Below, one piece after another: positions 36,003 to 60,205 of a stretch of 64,000 nt of DNA. The stretch covers positions 37,888 to 101,887 of IMG/VR virus record IMGVR_UViG_3300042514_001262. The stretch is one strand, 5' to 3'. Source of the DNA: a virus. A program made the translations under genes and the position numbers. Within the stretch, counting starts at the first letter, position 1; each line of letters starts with the position of its first letter. Below the pieces are notes generated by a model, which was not told where the DNA came from, searched no databases, and worked only from the letters and a program-made list of their open reading frames with translations.

Positions 36003-39000
36003 TAGTTAAGTTTCGCTTTTGATATAAATACATTTGCAGGACTTTCGTCATTCCATGTTTTATTATTTGTGTTTTGGTTACCTGTCGCACCCAATCCTTT
36101 TATCAATGATTGTTGAGCATCTGTATTTGCATTCTCTGTTGTATAAGTAAATGTTCTTTTCTTTTTAAGACTAAATGGCGTATATTTTAAGAAATCTTTT
36201 AATCTATTTTTTTCCATATCCTCAATAAACGCTTTAGTAATTGTGTTTTCTTCTTCAAAAACAGATTTAACACTTACTTGATTAGGTGAACCTACTAACC
36301 AATACTCATCAAACGCATTACTAATAGCATTACCATCACCTTTTGTTAAAGCGGTATTATTAAGTATATTACCAATTAACGCATTTTTAAATGATTCATA
36401 TTTTTTACTATCGGTAACATCATTAGAAACAATCATATAAACTCTTCTAAAAACATAACCATTAGTATTACTATCAAATAATGAATTAGTACTAAATGGT
36501 GTGAATACTTGTTCTGTTGGGAACTTATAATTTGGTTCAAAAACTAATTTACCTGTATACGATTTAGCGTTGTATGTAAAAGTATTTGCACTCCATACAA
36601 CAGTATTAAATTCAGTGATACCACTTTTTATCTTTTTAATATCATTAATAAGTTCATTCATAGTGTTTGTAACACCTTGTGAACTTGGGTCTACTTCTGT
36701 TGTTCCTGATATTATATAAGAAACAACTTTTCCATCTTTTATTTGGTACCCATCAGTACCTGTGTCCGAATACCCAGGTACATTATATGATATAGTATTT
36801 ACCCTTCCAATATATCCAATATAACTTTGTTGAACGGAAACCATACCATTTGTTATGTTAGTAACAGCACTTTGAAAAGAACTTCTTTTGTTTTTAACAA
36901 AATTTGAATAGTTTTCTTGAACTTGGTTAACTAACCGATTTGAAAAATTTTTAGAAGGGTTCGAAATAAATTGAATAAATCCTTCATTTCCGTCTTTGAT
37001 GTCTTTCTCTAGTTGTCCAAAAATCTCATCAGTTCTTTTTTCTAAATTATAAGATTTACCAAATAAAATGGTGGGACTGTCTTTAGTTAATGTAAAATTA
37101 CCATTCTGATATGTCCTTTCCATCATCCATTGTTGACGAACGGCATTATTATATTGGTTTAAAGTTTCTCTATTTTTATTAACAACATTTGTAAAATATG
37201 ATTGTGTTTGTAATACCACCATATCCATAAATGTACTATAATTTATAGAACCAGTTTGACCTGTTTGACTTATAACATTACTTGTAACCGTACCAATTGG
37301 TTTATCATTACTTTGACCATTTTGTACTGGAGCTTGATTTATTGTCGGTGGTTGGACATTACTTCCAATTGTTTTAAGGAAATCGGCATCAATAACTTGA
37401 TAACTTAAATCCGTTGTGTCCGCTCTATCATCGTAAATTTCAGTATTAGCATAATAATTAAAAGTCAACGCGTTTTGTAATTTATCCACAGATTCTTTTA
37501 ATCCACTACCCCCAACAAAATTAAACGCTAATGTAACATTCGCAATCATTGGTTGAACTCCAATACCTTCAGGATTAATATCCAGATTTTCATAAGTGAT
37601 ACCCAATGATGTTGGGATTATTTTAGTATTATAAAAATCGCCTACTCTTAAAATCAATACTGGTGGTGCACCAAATGATGTATTTGTAGCATTACTATAG
37701 TCAGGGGCTGTAGTACCATTAACATTTTTAATTGTCGGAATGGTATCTCCAGGTCTCATACATTGTTGTAAGAAAGTCAATCTTGAGTTTAAACCTTCAG
37801 GTGTTATTGAGTGGAACGCTGGTTGGAAAAACTTGAGTTTGTCTTTCAAGTTATCATAAACCATTGGAGTATCTTGTTTTATAGTTTCAAAATAATCACA
37901 CTCAGATAATAAAGCTCGTAAAACTTTTTTACTTATATTGTTAGTGTCTTTTCTAACAACATTTGCCTCTGTTACAGGTTCGGTTTCAGTTTTTGTTACA
38001 ACATTACCTGTAACAACAGTAGTTTGTTTTGCCGGTAAAACCGCTGCGGGCGCTTTTAATGTTGATTGTATATTTGAGATATACGCTCTTCTGCAAGCCA
38101 TTGCGTTTGTAGTATAAATGTCTTTATTTAAAGATTGACTATTACCATCATTATCCCCACAAGACACACTACTACCAGGGACAAATTTTTGAGTTTTTTC
38201 GTCGTACCTTAATACTTGTGTAAATTCACCAAATCCTTGACCGACTTTAACAATCAATCTTTGTGGTGTCCCTGTTACGTATTTTGTCATCTTACTATTA
38301 CCTGTAATGTATATTGCCGCTGAGTTAATTCTCTTAGCGGATAAAATGTTGTTGTATGCCTGTTTTGCCGATGGTGAAGTACTACTATCAATTGTAATTG
38401 TTACAGTACCTTCAGGATTATTTTTAAATTGTTTGTCTAACTCATCTATCAATTCATCAATTTTATTTTTGTTTGGTGTAACTACACTATCAAAAAAAGA
38501 CGAAGTTTGTTGAGCAGTACTAGGTGATTGTTCACTATAGTATGTTTTTTGTCCAATATATGGTGTATAGGTATTTATAAAGTTTTCATTAAATTCCGCT
38601 GGTTTATCATTATTAAAATAAAACCCTACTTGTTCAAAACTTTTAAGTGTTGATTCAGGCGCACTACCAGTACCTTTATCACCAGATACTTGTGGTATTG
38701 TTTCAATTGTATTAACTGTATATTCAATTTGTTCTCTTGTTAATTCTTTTGAGGACAAAGCTTGTTGTATATCAAACAAGTCATTTGGTGGTATAGTATA
38801 ATATTTTTTAGCTAACTCATACAAGTCGTATTTTCTACATCCTGCAAAAAACGATTCCAATATAGAATCAATTCTAGTTTTATTTGTTTGGTCAGCCAAA
38901 ACTTTATTAACAATCACATTCAAAACTGAAGGATGGTCAACAACTATTTTCCACTGTAAGCTACCAGTTCTACTTGTATTTTTATATGTGTAAATTGGTT

Positions 39001-53221: not shown

Positions 53222-53951
53222 TAAATGTAAGGTTGAGAAACTATTAGAAAATTTCGTTAAAAAAAATAATAGTCCTGATGGGTGTGGAAATACTTGTAAT
53301 CAATGTAACAATGAGAGGGGAAGGAAATATCGTATTAAAAATAAAGAAAAAATAAAAAATTATTATATTGAAAATAAAGAAAAACACCAATCTTACAAAA
53401 AAGAACATTACACTAATAATAGAGAAAAAATAAAATCCAACAGTAAAGAATATTATATTAAAAATAAAGAAAAACAAATATCACAAAAAAAAGAATATTA
53501 TATTAAAAATAGAGAAAAAAAACTATCTAAACAGAAAGAATATAATATTAAAAATAAAGAAAATCTACAATCTTACCGTAATGAGTATGAAAGAAATAGA
53601 AAATTAAATGACCCTATTTATAAGTTATCAATTAATGTTAGAGATAGATTAAGAAAATATCTAAAGAGTGTAGGTATCACCAAGAATAAAAGAACATTTG
53701 ATATTGTTGGTTGTTCTCCACCTGAATTAAAAGAACATTTAGAAAAACAATTTGTGGATGGAATGTCTTGGGATAAAATGGGGAAAAAAATACATATTGA
53801 CCATATAATACCATTATCTTCCGCAAAAACAGAAGAAGATATATATAAATTAGCCCATTACACGAATCTTCAACCACTATGGGCTGAAGATAATTTGGCA
53901 AAATCAAACAAACTGGATTATTTATATACAACGGATAATCCAAAATTATGA
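53202..53951 (+). CDS. HNH homing-type endonuclease, copy 1
   Basis: N-terminal CSKC...CNQC zinc finger, KEYYIKNKEK repeats, HIDHIIPL...HYTNLQPLWAEDNLAK; GTG start. Confidence 0.88.
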   Translation: METKICSKCKVEKLLENFVKKNNSPDGCGNTCNQCNNERGRKYRIKNKEKIKNYYIENKEKHQSYKKEHYTNNREKIKSNSKEYYIKNKEKQISQKKEYYIKNREKKLSKQKEYNIKNKENLQSYRNEYERNRKLNDPIYKLSINVRDRLRKYLKSVGITKNKRTFDIVGCSPPELKEHLEKQFVDGMSWDKMGKKIHIDHIIPLSSAKTEEDIYKLAHYTNLQPLWAEDNLAKSNKLDYLYTTDNPKL

Positions 53952-56630: not shown

Positions 56631-56966
56631 ATGGCAATTATAAGAACAATCCCGTCTACAAGATTAATCAACGGGGAAATTTTAAAAACATCAGAAGTAT
56701 CAATAGTATCCGAGTCGGAATATAGAACCAACGGAGAGGAATGTATTATTGTGAGAAATGTCAGTGAATCTACAATTATTTTGGATTCCAAAACAACTGA
56801 CCATATTGTGGTAAAGGCAATGACAAAAGTAACAATCAAACCTAATATAGGTAAGATTGATGAGGACTATGATGAAATAGTTGCCGACAAGTATGCTTGT
56901 ATTGAATTCAGATTTTGTGGTGGAAACTGGTATATTTTGTCGTCAGACGGATTGAAAAGTTCTTAA
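56631..56966 (+). CDS. Small hypothetical beta-rich protein
   Basis: 111 aa, 4 nt after the neck gene; ends GGNWYILS. Confidence 0.65.
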   Translation: MAIIRTIPSTRLINGEILKTSEVSIVSESEYRTNGEECIIVRNVSESTIILDSKTTDHIVVKAMTKVTIKPNIGKIDEDYDEIVADKYACIEFRFCGGNWYILSSDGLKSS

Positions 56967-57193
56967 TTTATTTCAAATTGAATCTATTTTCAACGAATTT
57001 TTATACACTACCTGTGCATTGGTAGGTGTCTATGACTTTCAAATTGTATCTATCTTCAACAGACCCTTGGACTATGCGCAGATTGTTGCGGGTGTCTATG
57101 ACTTTCAAATTGTATCTGTCTTCAACTTGGTATAGGTATATCCATCACAAAATGGTAGGTGTCTATGACTTTCAAATTGTATCTGTCTTCAAC
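56959..57193 (-). CRISPR. Orphan CRISPR-like mini-array, type VI-B-like repeat
   Basis: 36-nt repeat GTTGAAGAYAGATACAATTTGAAAGTCATAGACACC at 57158-57193, 57091-57126 and 57025-57060; degenerate terminal copy matches the adjacent repeat at 22/24 over 56971-56994; unique spacers of 31, 30 and 30 nt. Confidence 0.8.
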
Positions 57194-57442
57194 CCACTTA
57201 CCGATAACCTTTAGGGTATCAACCTTCTCCAGTCCGAAGTAGTCAGAAATTTCGTCTCTTAATTTGTAATAAACATATAAATATCCCGGTTTTTTCCATC
57301 CTAAAACACCATATTCCTCACCAGGAAAGTGAAAAACAATATCAACAAACTTACCTTTTTTTTGTTCAAGAGCACCGTATTCCGTATCCAAAAATTTGAA
57401 TATAACTTTATCTAATCTATTTTCTGTTATAATGTATTTCAT
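57122..57442 (-). CDS. Small hypothetical protein (MKYIITE leader) whose 3' end is the first array repeat
   Basis: 106 aa; TATTTAT 5 nt upstream; VEDRYNLKVIDT is encoded by repeat 1. Confidence 0.8.
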   Translation of the reverse strand: MKYIITENRLDKVIFKFLDTEYGALEQKKGKFVDIVFHFPGEEYGVLGWKKPGYLYVYYKLRDEISDYFGLEKVDTLKVIGKWVEDRYNLKVIDTYHFVMDIPIPS

Positions 57443-57481
57443 TAATAATAAATATTAGAAAATATTTTTTATTACCTTTTC

Positions 57482-60205
57482 TTAAATTATTGTTGCTAGA
57501 TTATCTTGCCAACCATCTTCTGCTAAGTCATACATATAGTCAGAACTTAAACCTCGTTTTTCCCAATAAGACATTTCAGCGTCTGTAATTGCTAACACAT
57601 CTTCCAACTTATCTTGGTCAGAATCTTCAAATGGTAACCCATTTATTAATTCACACTGAGCGGTTGTAAAGATACCTCTTTGTTCAGGGTCATTTACAAT
57701 TAAACCATTTCTAACCTCATCTTTAAAACAAACCAATAATGGCTCAATTCTTTTATTAAATGTTGTTATTGCTCTCGGCACATTATAATCACCTGTTAGA
57801 TTAGGGTCGTTATCTAAAATATCTTTATCTAACATATAACAATTAATTTGAACACCATCACCTTTCTTTTGAACATCACCGTGAGATGATTTAATACCAT
57901 TGTTAACATACAAAATAACATCACCCAAACTCACATTTAAGTTTGACTGTAAAGCTAACTCCATGTGAGCCATACGACTCATACTATTACCTGATTTAGT
58001 TTTTTCTGTTAAACGTTTCTTATAGTCCTCCATTGACAACTTAACCTTAGCTCTTTGAGCAATCTTACTTAACGGTATTTTCTTATCAAAGATTGTTTGT
58101 AAATACTCATAGTAGTATTCCACAAATGATTTACCGTCACCCTGAAGTAACATCTTAATTCCTTTATCCAAAAAAGCCTCAATATATAGTGGAAGTTTTT
58201 TTGATTTAATACTATTACCCGTTAATTTGATTTTACCTTTAGAATCCATAACGGCATAGTTCTTACGAGCCAAGTTAATACATGAAGGCCAAACCCCATC
58301 AGTATCAAGAGCCATTTCACCTCTCATGAAGATATCATTATACTCCGCAACATCCGCTTCAGGACCATAGTATTCTTTACCTTCTTTAACCTTCCAATTT
58401 AACCCACGACCAACATATACCCTATCCTTCGCATCTGGCGGAGTTGAAAAGTTCACTCCGTCCGTATCCATTACCAAAGGAACATAACCTTTAGTCATGA
58501 AGAACTTAATCATTTGACGAAGGTATTGTCTACCCGTACAAGTAATCTGTTCTCCCATATACATGTCACCCCAAGCATAAACCTGTGGTGCCGACAAAGC
58601 TCCGAACATGGAGTTAATAAAAATTTTAATTGGTAATTGTTTGTTACCGTATGATTCAGATTTTTTACGGTCTGTCTCATAAAACTCTTCCGCAAGTTGT
58701 TTGTATTTGATACGAGTGTCACGGAAATACTTTAACATTCCTTTCATTGCACCTGTTACATCACAGTCGGGGAATACATCGTGTACCAACTGAATAGAGG
58801 GATATAGAGACGAGAAGTCAAGTTTGAGAACATCTTTAGAGTAACCAACCTTAAGTAGTCGTGAAAGACCCCCTACGAAGTCTGTCTTACCTTGTTTCTC
58901 AGGAATGGCAAGTCCATGTTTATAAGACCAAGCCAACATCAACATCTTCCATAATGTTGCGGTTCCCATGGTTGAAACCCTTTCATATGTTGTTGGAATC
59001 ATCGCAGCCAACAAGAATGAACCTTGGTTGAACTCTTGGTCAACCTTTAGGGTTTCATCTAAGTCATCGTCAAGATACATCTCAACTAACTTGTCACCTG
59101 TAATTTTGTTATAAACATCAGAGCGTTTTGAACACGCATCATCAATCTTTGAATCAACCCCAACTTTCTTGTACTTACCGTTTTGAGTGTTTAACCAAAA
59201 ATCTTCTTTCTTCACATAAAATGGTCCGATATCCAAATGGTCAATATAAACACGGTCAGGAGCTTCAGCGTTAATATACTTGGTAATATATTTCAAACCC
59301 GCAGCTTTAATACTTGAGTTAATCGCCTGAGCCCTACGAACCGCATGGATAATATCAATTACATTGTAACCCCAAATTGAAGTTTGGGTAAAAGTTTCTA
59401 CCTCATTCGCAAGCTTTAACATACTATCTTTTCTTGTGAATGAATGGTCGGGGTGTAATGACTTACATATTTTCTTTGGGTCAATTCCCAATATATTACA
59501 TCTTTCAAAAATCCAATGCCAGTCAAAGTTTGCCGAATTATATCCACCAATTATACTTGGTTTTAATTCGTTAATCACTCTAAAAAATTCAATGATTGCA
59601 TTTTTTTCTTCTCTCTCATCCATACACTCAATCACTCGGTGATAACCCTTGTTTGTTTTAATTCCAATCATGAAGATACGACCATCCTTTGGTTCAAGAG
59701 CGGTCGTCTCCAAGTCATATACAAGTCGGGTCACTTCGTCATAGTTCTCGAAACCCTTAAATAATCGTTTTTCTTTTGAGATGAGATATTGTTCTACAGG
59801 AGGTAGAATCATTACTTTGTCTTTAGTTTTTTCTCCCCATGGGTCACATCCACCTTCTCTGAAGAATTGGATAAGTTCTCTATAACCTTTAAGTGATTTA
59901 ACCATGAACGTCATACCGTTCTGTAATCTTTCATTACCGTGGGTCTCCAATTTGTCAATCATAATACCATGTTTGGTCATGGCTTCTTTCTGAGCTGCTT
60001 TTGAATTACCGTAAAAGTTAATACCACGCAGGTCACCTACCCAAGCGAATGGGGTGAATGTATCTTTACGGATTTCTTTTCCCTTACCGGGTATTTCACG
60101 TACCTTGTAAATGGAATTTTCGCGATAATCGTATTCTATTGCGACTATAAATTCTTCGGGGTCATTCCCGTGTAAGAACGATTCAATTTCTTCGTTTGAT
60201 ATCAT
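57482..60205 (-). CDS. Family B DNA polymerase
   Basis: Exo DLETT and GYNSANFD; pol DFSSLYPS, KIFINSMFG, MDTDG, KNYA. Confidence 0.96.
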   Translation of the reverse strand: MISNEEIESFLHGNDPEEFIVAIEYDYRENSIYKVREIPGKGKEIRKDTFTPFAWVGDLRGINFYGNSKAAQKEAMTKHGIMIDKLETHGNERLQNGMTFMVKSLKGYRELIQFFREGGCDPWGEKTKDKVMILPPVEQYLISKEKRLFKGFENYDEVTRLVYDLETTALEPKDGRIFMIGIKTNKGYHRVIECMDEREEKNAIIEFFRVINELKPSIIGGYNSANFDWHWIFERCNILGIDPKKICKSLHPDHSFTRKDSMLKLANEVETFTQTSIWGYNVIDIIHAVRRAQAINSSIKAAGLKYITKYINAEAPDRVYIDHLDIGPFYVKKEDFWLNTQNGKYKKVGVDSKIDDACSKRSDVYNKITGDKLVEMYLDDDLDETLKVDQEFNQGSFLLAAMIPTTYERVSTMGTATLWKMLMLAWSYKHGLAIPEKQGKTDFVGGLSRLLKVGYSKDVLKLDFSSLYPSIQLVHDVFPDCDVTGAMKGMLKYFRDTRIKYKQLAEEFYETDRKKSESYGNKQLPIKIFINSMFGALSAPQVYAWGDMYMGEQITCTGRQYLRQMIKFFMTKGYVPLVMDTDGVNFSTPPDAKDRVYVGRGLNWKVKEGKEYYGPEADVAEYNDIFMRGEMALDTDGVWPSCINLARKNYAVMDSKGKIKLTGNSIKSKKLPLYIEAFLDKGIKMLLQGDGKSFVEYYYEYLQTIFDKKIPLSKIAQRAKVKLSMEDYKKRLTEKTKSGNSMSRMAHMELALQSNLNVSLGDVILYVNNGIKSSHGDVQKKGDGVQINCYMLDKDILDNDPNLTGDYNVPRAITTFNKRIEPLLVCFKDEVRNGLIVNDPEQRGIFTTAQCELINGLPFEDSDQDKLEDVLAITDAEMSYWEKRGLSSDYMYDLAEDGWQDNLATII

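Follow-up and report, generated by a model that had tools for sequence, protein, structure and literature searches.

Structure of the Locus

The window, that is, the whole 64,000-nt stretch analyzed here (positions 37,888 to 101,887 of the virus record IMGVR_UViG_3300042514_001262), carries on its minus strand a gene of 106 codons whose 3' coding end is the first repeat of a short repeat–spacer array. The features are listed in the 5' to 3' direction of the gene.

57448–57454, minus strand: TATTTAT motif, 5 nt 5' of the ATG, within the 39-nt gap after the PolB gene
57122–57442, minus strand: 106-aa ORF of a wide phage family with the N-terminus MKYIITEN; residues 1–95 are the conserved domain
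57158–57193, minus strand: repeat 1, codons 84–95 (VEDRYNLKVIDT) of the 106-aa ORF; gene-proximal, with new spacers appearing beside it
57127–57157, minus strand: spacer 1, 31 nt, the newest; tail reading YHFVMDIPIP
57091–57126, minus strand: repeat 2, identical to repeat 1; supplies the stop of the ORF
57061–57090, minus strand: spacer 2, 30 nt
57025–57060, minus strand: repeat 3, one mismatch (C-to-T)
56995–57024, minus strand: spacer 3, 30 nt, the oldest
56959–56994, minus strand: decayed terminal repeat, 26/36 identical; reads VENRFNLK, then stop

The repeat has a constant length of 36 nt and is present in three copies and a decayed fourth, with a period of 66–67 nt, and the spacers of the window (31, 30, and 30 nt) are mutually unrelated. 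The TGA stop codon of the ORF (57122–57124) corresponds to nucleotides 3–5 of repeat 2, and residues 96–106 are encoded by spacer 1 together with the first bases of this repeat. The arrangement described in the first-pass annotation, namely, 36-nt repeats at the C-terminal coding end, spacers of 31, 30, and 30 nt, and a degenerate trailer, was found again in full. The repeat did not occur elsewhere in the 101,887-bp virus record, and a non-coding AT-rich leader was absent at the first repeat, the gene body lying upstream instead. The decayed terminal copy, which overlaps the 3' end of a convergent gene (56631–56966, plus strand), is probably the original 3' end of the gene; in the relative L006, the equivalent terminal copy reads through to a stop codon abutting the next paralogue. 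As judged from its sequence, the TATTTAT motif is a possible phage promoter element, and neither a sigma-70-like promoter nor an intrinsic terminator was found above chance level at the locus. A 151-nt contig from a lake metatranscriptome run covers positions 57221–57371, a weak hint that the gene is probably expressed; among the assembled contigs of that run, none lies over the array, which says nothing either way.

Homologues of the Gene and Turnover of the Array

The first-pass annotation had missed that the repeat goes back to coding sequence ancestral to a widespread protein family, and likewise the host origin of the spacers and the translation, under selection, of the newest one. The same gene end carries arrays in homologues diverged to ~30% identity, the 36-nt repeat differing from one homologue to the next, and arrays were present in most of the family members found, one genome having them in as many as four paralogues. 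All eight metagenome matches to the window repeat (8/8, JGI metagenomes) were linked to the phage gene, and BLAST against a phage collection gave no match, whether the query was the whole locus or just the array. Spacers across phages are 28–32 nt long, those of 29 and 31 nt breaking the reading frame, and in some relatives the whole array is in frame and free of stops. In the array-bearing members examined, the repeat started with G(T/G/A)TG(G/A)A and had ACA(C/A)C or GACC at nucleotides 32–36; nine array-less members had kept the peptide motif but not the array-end bases.

The gene-distal spacer (spacer 3) is common to the window phage and to its relatives L005 and L055, and the gene-proximal spacers differ, with two in the window, one in L005, and four in L055; in single lake samples, further spacers adjoin the same repeat. 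The window thus contains a genuine, growing CRISPR-type array. Its initial description as a phage gene joined to a true CRISPR-type mini-array was borne out by the constant repeats, the unrelated spacers, the polar turnover, and the protospacers given below. Chance is excluded, since the same architecture with other spacers was present in IMG/VR and in eight metagenome contigs, and 3/3 protospacers were found in one genome.

Origin of the Spacers and the Probable Host

All three spacers of the window were matched in one metagenome-assembled genome (MAG), Loclat_bin-12876. Spacer 1 (31/31) corresponded to an M1-aminopeptidase gene, in the sense orientation and in frame; spacer 2 (28/30) was antisense to the gene of an S8 subtilase that has a T9SS sorting domain; and spacer 3 (30/30) lay within a DUF6089 gene, in the sense orientation but out of frame. 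The matches fell on three contigs of this MAG, and 200 further genomes from its family had no such match. The spacers of relatives added three more exact matches, bringing the total to 6 of 8 distinct spacers, and the six protospacers lie in ordinary host genes, three being sense and three antisense to host ORFs, with no evident PAM. Loclat_bin-12876, a Chitinophagaceae lake bacterium whose MAG is incomplete (2.6 Mb in 306 contigs), is the likely host, linked to the phage by the spacer matches alone. A Flavobacteriales host was rejected, as BLAST of the array against 400 sampled Flavobacteriales genomes gave chance-level matches only.

Comparison of 40 spacers with the 101-kb record and the collected loci revealed no self-match, and in a complete 309-kb relative (G001), none of the 11 spacers recurred in its own genome. 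The sources of the spacers of the B-type relatives L051 and L052 were not found in G410, G481, or 201 Chitinophagaceae genomes, with few candidates scored per genome. The core of spacer 1 was absent from IMG/VR, and that of spacer 2 was missed in an exact GTDB scan because of its two mismatches to the MAG. The GC content of the spacers did not differ from the phage value.

These matches bear on whether the locus is of CRISPR type at all. A coding tandem duplication, or replication iterons near the polymerase gene, would agree with a repeat that is coding, with the in-frame arrays of some relatives, and with the position of the locus behind PolB; however, the inter-repeat pieces are mutually unrelated exact copies of scattered host genes, and the 29- and 31-nt spacers disrupt the frame. 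Contradicted by polar addition and by protospacers in host genes, this explanation was rejected as having almost no probability. The first-pass annotation had associated an ordinary duplication with homologues lacking arrays and with spacers that resemble each other and have no protospacers; instead, many diverged homologues do carry arrays, and the spacers are unrelated and have protospacers.

The Protein and Its Translated Tail

Searches of Pfam and PHROGs with the 106-aa protein gave no match. The AlphaFold2 model (pLDDT 89.4, pTM 0.81) contains a confident last strand, residues 94–98, which runs into the spacer-coded part. No fold relatives of the model were found (best E = 0.23 in Foldseek against PDB; best Z = 4.3 in the wide VIA-align search), and its matches in BFVD and the ESM Atlas were only uncharacterised viral proteins. 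The suggestion that the small protein is itself an RNA-guided effector found no support, the model being confident and without a fold relative.

The pN/pS ratio of the gene body was 0.55, and synonymous divergence was 0.12 in the repeat 1 part versus 0.21 in the rest of the gene. In the gene frame, a first stop within spacer codons 1–5 was found in 3/45 spacers, compared with 64/225 in the other frames (p = 0.0008); the depletion was confined to these codons, with none further along the spacer. Since early stops are depleted in the gene frame, the tail is translated, and by this codon statistic the newest spacer is under selection against early stops.

According to one explanation, the ever-changing C-terminal tail is itself what is selected, for example against a host sensor or protease. 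It is suggested by tails that differ in nearly all homologue clusters (98 distinct tails among 116 clusters), by the stop depletion, by the confident strand that enters the spacer-coded part, and by the stop-free, in-frame arrays of some relatives. On the other hand, because the depletion ends after codon 5, what is needed seems to be just a short extension and no particular tail. Array-less members end 1–2 residues beyond the repeat-equivalent peptide, the tails are arbitrary host fragments in any frame, and the tail-length statistic, being based on cluster representatives, favours long members, the DNA-based stop test having been relied on instead. Consequently, selection for diversity of the tail is considered unlikely.

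Alternatively, the arrays may be neutral scars left where the host integrase acted off target on a sequence that resembles a repeat by chance; they would be tolerated while the protein survives and would bring the phage no benefit. The peptides W-(V/L)-E-(E/D) and T-T/T-P easily encode GTTGAA/GTTGGA and ACAAC/ACACC, respectively, the inserts are random host fragments from both strands, and selection is visible only against early stops; the derivation of the inserts from the host rather than the phage fits as well. The array may then be a tolerated by-product only. Against this, arrays are present in most of the family members found, across divergence to ~30% identity, with as many as four array-bearing paralogues in one genome, and the site could be removed by synonymous change, yet the repeat part shows the lowest synonymous divergence. 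Moreover, the start and end motifs shift jointly by one base between lineages with the 36-nt spacing kept, although this may be an ascertainment effect. An origin without any benefit is therefore possible but somewhat doubtful.

Cas Genes of the Phage and the Host

Neither Cas1 (PF01867) nor Cas13b (NF038190), the only cas families searched, was found in the virus record, which is ~33% complete, or in two complete related phage genomes, one of them array-bearing. The initial statement that the 64 kb contain no cas gene thus holds for these two families. The host MAG encodes a type II Cas1 (6.5e-85) and Cas2, and type II Cas1 was present in 21/61 genomes sampled from the host family. The Cas9 model TIGR01865 had no match in the host MAG, and a 332-aa ORF upstream of its cas1 gene had no family match. 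Cas13b was not found in the incomplete host MAG or in its genus mate, and it occurred in 3/301 genomes of the host order, one of them within the family. The II-C repeats of the host family are 46–47 nt long, with a period of 76–78, and 36-nt repeats are known there only from rare VI-B arrays.

Comparison of the Repeat with Bacterial CRISPR Repeats

The dimensions of a Cas13b array (36-nt repeat and ~30-nt spacers), pointed out in the first-pass annotation, were confirmed, as was a resemblance of the repeat to verified VI-B repeats, to which it was identical at 24–27 of 36 positions, with shuffles reaching at most 24–25. The identity was 27/36 with Chryseobacterium-type repeats next to verified cas13b (null 20.5 ± 1.6, maximum 25), the Flavobacteriales VI-B repeat set having been chosen with a motif from a phage repeat, and 24/36 with the repeat of G528, a host-family genome with a verified VI-B array; the best of 300 shuffles scored equally high. 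The likeness to VI-B repeats, as measured on sequence, is modest, and that to II-C repeats was within the null. The ends of the repeat, GUUG/CACC, form three of four pairs, and UUU is present; the folding energy was no better than that of shuffles (z = −0.3). In some relatives, such as G001 (at 292 kb), the repeat ends are GTTG..CAAC. The search for an anti-repeat in the 101 kb yielded none (best candidate 22/36). The exact window repeat was absent from GTDB genomes, although the absence of a host copy is unproven because host arrays assemble poorly. The degenerate repeat of the L017/L030 type had no match in a GTDB scan, and Rfam at a permissive threshold gave only chance matches over the array and no CRISPR-DR family.

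These data bear on two explanations in which the transcript of the array would act. In the first, the array is a working guide array, the transcript of which would yield crRNAs for host Cas13b or Cas9 against host genes or competing phages, to the advantage of the phage. It draws on the VI-B dimensions and VI-B-like repeat, on exact spacer matches to host genes, and, weakly, on the fact that the array follows a probably expressed gene in the same orientation; in addition, Cas-less phage arrays with host-matching spacers are known (PMC7162821). Nevertheless, the guide-supply idea of the first-pass annotation was weakened by the spacers themselves, which copy ordinary host chromosomal genes on both strands and not competing phages; given the split of three sense and three antisense spacers to host ORFs, half of them cannot pair with mRNA. 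Cas13b is also rare in the host order and was found in neither the MAG nor its genus mate, the repeat has an imperfect terminal stem and folds no better than shuffles, an identical repeat outside the phage gene is absent from GTDB and the JGI metagenomes, and the Cas9 route lacks an anti-repeat in the 101 kb. Activation of Cas13 brings collateral RNase activity, which would presumably hurt the phage. A guide function is accordingly rather unlikely.

In the second explanation, the repeats of an abundant phage transcript would act as an RNA anti-CRISPR, soaking up a repeat-binding Cas effector; every insertion would supply a further decoy repeat, and the spacers would be irrelevant. The VI-B-like repeat, conserved at the nucleotide level, the presence of several arrays per genome, and the phage-borne repeat mimics described in the literature point in this direction. 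However, no such effector was found in the host MAG with the Cas13b and Cas9 models, and the predicted structure of the repeat is weak, so that an RNA decoy is regarded as quite improbable.

Proposed Mechanism

The reading that we favour, and hold to be probable, is that an integrase of the host writes host DNA at the repeat-like end of the phage gene, the newest piece becoming the tail of the protein. The last 36 coding bases of the gene would be similar enough to a Bacteroidota CRISPR repeat (GTTG.. start, central TTTGAA, and ..ACACC end) for a spacer integrase to take the gene end as the first repeat of an array and the gene body as its leader. In each event, a 28–32-nt piece, a chromosome fragment of the Chitinophagaceae lake host, would be inserted beside the gene-proximal repeat with duplication of 36 nt, and repeated events would produce a repeat–spacer ladder ending in the old, decaying 3' end of the gene. 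Lineages in which an insert brings a stop within about five codons would be lost. The signature of ectopic integration is present at these loci: a 36-nt duplication, inserts of 28–32 nt, and arrays only where the ends are GTTG../..ACA(C/A)C.

The writer is likely a host enzyme, since the phage is without cas1 and the host MAG has type II cas1-cas2; host Cas1-Cas2 would thus be the integrase acting on the phage gene end, during infection. A simple ruler model does not fit because the II-C repeats of the host family measure 46–47 nt, not 36, and we infer some route to a 36-nt duplication despite this length. As to function, we lean tentatively to an integrase decoy: the phage may keep the repeat mimic because it diverts the integrase, and repeat-binding effectors perhaps as well, from the array of the host. 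A broader proposal, equally tentative, is that the 3' coding end has evolved as a working CRISPR-repeat mimic at which the host integrase adds host DNA to the phage rather than phage DNA to the host array; this would be an anti-adaptation decoy in which insertions remake the tail and the CRISPR array is translated.

If host Cas1-Cas2 writes at this site, CRISPR adaptation acts on natural virus genomes and not only on host arrays, and off-target 'neo-CRISPR' formation occurs in the wild, with its requirements (GTTG and ACA(C/A)C 36 nt apart) readable from many natural cases. A phage genome could then preserve a dated record of its past hosts, and spacers could turn into protein sequence. The three spacers of the window would single out one Chitinophagaceae species, so that the host of an uncultured phage would be assigned with great precision. 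The mechanism also bears on the question raised by Hoikkala et al. (PMC8092290) of how 36-nt VI-B-type repeats arise where only II-C Cas1-Cas2, with 47-nt repeats, is available.

Comparison with Known Systems

A translated gene-end array of this kind was not found in the literature searched. In experiments with E. coli, Cas1-Cas2 reportedly integrates off target at non-CRISPR sites, forming a 'neo-CRISPR'. The phage loci share with such events a repeat-like non-CRISPR site, duplication of a target of repeat length, and stepwise growth; unlike them, the loci are natural, recurrent, located inside a virus gene, and kept over deep divergence. Phages also carry RNA anti-CRISPRs and solitary repeat units, and these are likewise phage-borne CRISPR-like repeats without cas genes. 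However, they closely mimic the host repeat and do not grow by spacer gain, whereas the phage-gene arrays grow.

Among the closest known systems are the VI-B arrays of Bacteroidota (Smargon et al., bioRxiv 10.1101/092577; PMC8092290), with which the phage array shares the 36-nt repeat, ~30-nt spacers, and 66-nt period, the GTTG start, central U-rich TTTGAA, and ACAAC-like end of the repeat, and the absence of cas1/cas2 beside the array. [quoted passage not shown] In contrast to VI-B arrays, the array described here is phage-borne, and cas13b was found neither next to it nor in the host MAG; its repeat is protein-coding, a gene takes the place of the leader, and the ends (GUUG/CACC) form an imperfect terminal stem. 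Whereas VI-B spacers are directed at transcripts of phages, those of the phage array are host DNA without strand bias.

Huge phages carry compact Cas-less CRISPR arrays, some spacers of which match the host chromosome (Al-Shayeb et al. 2020, PMC7162821). Like the array of the window, these are short arrays on large phages without acquisition or interference genes, and hosts have been named from their spacers. However, the arrays of PMC7162821 are non-coding, and those lacking interference and integration genes have host-like repeats, whereas the repeat described here forms the 3' end of a conserved gene and differs from all bacterial repeats found; moreover, translation extends into the newest spacer, and the repeat varies from paralogue to paralogue.

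Organization of the gene and its array

The array lies in an IMG/VR record of 101,887 bp with an estimated completeness of 33%, of which the window spans bases 37888–101887, and the features of this part of the window are as follows:

57482–60205, minus strand: family-B DNA polymerase (PolB) gene
57122–57442, minus strand: 106-aa ORF, directly after the PolB gene on the same strand
57158–57193, minus strand: repeat 1, 36 nt, codons 84–95 (VEDRYNLKVIDT) of the 106-aa ORF
57091–57126, minus strand: repeat 2, identical to repeat 1
57025–57060, minus strand: repeat 3, one difference from repeat 1
56959–56994, minus strand: decayed terminal repeat, 26/36 identity
56631–56966, plus strand: convergent 111-aa gene, overlapping the decayed terminal repeat by 8 nt (56959–56966)

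Spacers 1, 2 and 3 (31, 30 and 30 nt, respectively) were mutually unrelated. Since spacer 1 is 31 nt long, the frame slips and the 106-aa ORF ends at a TGA within repeat 2. The decayed copy is translated as VENRFNLK followed by a stop and looks like an earlier end of the gene. The 8-nt overlap leaves no space for a terminator between the convergent gene and the array, and none was predicted between the convergent gene and the array gene. Further copies of the repeat were absent elsewhere in the record, and the array-gene family had a single member in it. A tandem-repeat scan also detected an AT-rich repeat at window positions 53353–53563 (period of 45/90 nt, 4.5 copies).

Source of the spacers

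The first-pass annotation had read the segments between the repeats as CRISPR spacers, and a search against bacterial genomes bore this out, with protospacers of all three found in one MAG. The core of spacer 1 had a single exact match in GTDB, and the complete spacer (31/31) lies within an M1-aminopeptidase gene whose contig, from the lake MAG Loclat_bin-12876, carries ordinary housekeeping genes. This MAG belongs to the Chitinophagaceae, since it shares its GTDB family with an "uncultured Chitinophagaceae bacterium" genome. When the whole window array was compared by BLAST with 201 genomes of this family, Loclat_bin-12876 was the sole match, on three contigs (spacer 1, 100%; spacer 3, 30/30; spacer 2, 28/30). 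Two relatives with the same repeat yielded three further exact matches in this MAG, and 6 of the 8 distinct spacers of the three phages match it. The remaining source genes encode an S8 subtilase with a T9SS sorting domain, a DUF6089 protein, NifU, a TPR protein and a short ORF. Three of the six matched spacers are sense and three antisense relative to host ORFs; spacer 1 alone is in frame, and the tail of the phage protein, YHFVMDIPIP, is thus the host's own peptide. The complete 309-kb relative has 11 spacers, none of which recurred in its own genome, and those of the B-type relatives had no source in the genomes searched.

Variation of the array among related phages

A 92% identical relative (L004/L005) carries two repeats and the same decayed copy; its gene-distal spacer is common to the window, whereas its gene-proximal spacer (31 nt) is different. 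Scanning JGI metagenomes with the window repeat gave eight contigs, all with the same gene end (..GGTAAGTGG) before the first repeat and no bacterial array among them. One of these contigs (L055) has the same gene-distal spacer with four other spacers ahead. In the three lineages the old end is kept and the gene-proximal end is variable, which is how arrays grow, from one end, in CRISPR adaptation. The window array is a live CRISPR-type array. Spacer length among relatives ranged from 28 to 32 nt. Lake-sample contigs from different years broke at repeats and contained alternative spacers beside the same repeat within one sample.

The 116 homologue clusters (55–98% identity) had 98 distinct C-terminal tails, the lengths of which formed the classes predicted from spacer length: 106 aa with a 31-nt spacer, 111 aa (ending in ..LKIDTI) with a 29-nt spacer and repeat 2 out of frame, and 133 aa with a 30-nt spacer and read-through into repeat 2. 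Eighteen lake or freshwater DNA runs (at least 17 studies, 2020–2025) contained window positions 56800–57600; the phage is widespread and persistent in lakes. In the B-type relative L051 (1–1080), the gene and array occur as two tandem copies, and both arrays end with the same oldest spacer and decayed repeat abutting the start of the next paralogue; therefore, the whole unit of gene and array was duplicated.

The repeat as coding sequence

The 106-aa protein is a member of a broad phage family of small proteins (45 IMG/VR loci), in which the N-terminus is conserved and a C-terminal W-x-E-x-x-(Y/F/L)-x-(L/V)-K motif is kept even by array-less members. Many homologues, checked as the first-pass annotation had proposed, were found to carry 36-nt repeats with variable spacers at their 3' ends; in many diverged members (about 30% identity) the array stands at the equivalent gene end, each with its own 36-nt repeat, and the complete 309-kb genome G001 has four such arrays. 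In the array-bearing members examined, the unit starts with G(T/G/A)TG(G/A)A and has ACA(C/A)C or GACC at nt 32–36, and between lineages both motifs shift jointly by one base against the codon register, at a constant distance of 36 nt. Nine array-less members retain the peptide in different codons. In the window's subfamily, the repeat part diverged less than the rest of the gene at synonymous (0.12 and 0.21, respectively) and non-synonymous (0.02 and 0.11) sites. The repeat is old coding sequence. That the nucleotides of the site are maintained across deeply diverged members and in several paralogues argues against a pure accident without benefit to the phage.

Two variants of the arrangement were observed. 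In one of the four G001 arrays (L102; 291,960–292,240, minus strand), the repeat is of near-canonical VI-B form (ends GTTG..CAAC); the first repeat of this array is a diverged copy with no family ORF of at least 50 aa across it. In relative L012 (5714–6271) and in L103 on G001 (305.1–305.8 and 307.7–308.4 kb), every spacer is free of stops and has a length divisible by 3 (30/30/30/30 or 30/30/27 nt), and thus the whole array is one ORF in which a 12-aa motif alternates with 10 variable residues.

Since each spacer was once gene-proximal, 45 distinct spacers were translated in all six frames, the gene frame being compared with the other five. Stops were found in 9/45 spacers in the gene frame versus 95/225 in the others (p = 0.003), and within the first five codons in 3/45 versus 64/225 (p = 0.0008); beyond codon 5 there was no depletion (6/45 versus 31/225). 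The AlphaFold2 model of the 106-aa protein was confident (pLDDT 89.4, pTM 0.81) and placed the repeat-coded residues at the end of the last helix, in a loop and at the start of the final strand (94–98), which extends into the spacer-coded part. Thus, the gene is functional as a gene in the array-bearing state, and a few residues past the repeat seem to be needed. The fold had no relatives in PDB, only uncharacterised viral look-alikes.

Adaptation machinery and likeness to Cas13b repeats

Searches for Cas1 and Cas13b were negative in the window's record and in two related phages with complete genomes. In Loclat_bin-12876, type II Cas1 (TIGR03639, 6.5e-85) is encoded together with Cas2 on a short contig (C227, 1–2561) with one II-C-type repeat at its end, so that the assembly is interrupted at the array. 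Upstream of cas1, an ORF of 332 aa had no Pfam or NCBIfam match and is probably a diverged Cas9 C-terminus. Type II Cas1 was present in 21 of the 61 genomes sampled from the host family. Cas13b was not found in Loclat_bin-12876 or its genus mate and is scarce in the host's order (3/301 genomes). In F. covae CP067379 (about 3,184,982–3,188,564), cas13b matches its model only in pieces with many internal stops, reflecting either a pseudogene or assembly errors.

The array had been described in the first-pass annotation as Cas13b-like, which held for its size and in part for its repeat. VI-B repeats are defined as 36 nt with GUUG/CAAC ends, a U-rich loop and 30-nt spacers; the window array fits in size, whereas its repeat ends (GUUG/CACC) fit only partially, and the predicted fold of the repeat RNA was no better than that of shuffles. 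The arrays matched by a search pattern built from one phage repeat all belonged to Flavobacteriales or to a single Bacteroidales MAG; beside one array, the large ORF is Cas13b (NF038190, E = 1e-272). The window repeat had 27/36 identity to the best of these repeats (shuffles 20.5 ± 1.6, maximum 25) and 24/36, with TTTGAA in register, to that of a Cas13b locus in the host's family, equal to the best of 300 shuffles; its likeness to the family's II-C repeats (46–47 nt) was within the null. A guide function for Cas13b, with which this partial likeness would agree, is weakened by the failure to find Cas13b in this host, by the lack of strand bias of the spacers relative to host ORFs and by a repeat that is not the host's own.

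Integrase-driven insertion of host DNA is a well-supported origin for the locus: a CRISPR spacer integrase would insert host DNA at the repeat-like gene end, and every insertion would duplicate 36 nt. The integrase is most likely the host's type II Cas1-Cas2, the host here being a Chitinophagaceae bacterium that carries type II adaptation genes. As to benefit, we lean tentatively towards a decoy for the host's integrase, itself a doubtful reading; tail diversification or an RNA decoy may also serve the phage.

Comparison with known systems

The VI-B arrays of F. columnare lack cas1 and gain their spacers in trans through the II-C Cas1 (PMC8092290), and how species with 47-nt II-C repeats produce 36-nt VI-B repeats is unsolved in that work; the phage arrays pose the same repeat-length puzzle. 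Huge phages are likewise already known to carry compact Cas-less arrays, some of them with spacers that match the chromosome of the host (PMC7162821). New relative to the papers searched are a repeat formed by the 3' coding end of genes of a conserved family, a separate repeat for each paralogue, a newest spacer that is translated and under selection, and spacers taken from both strands of host DNA.
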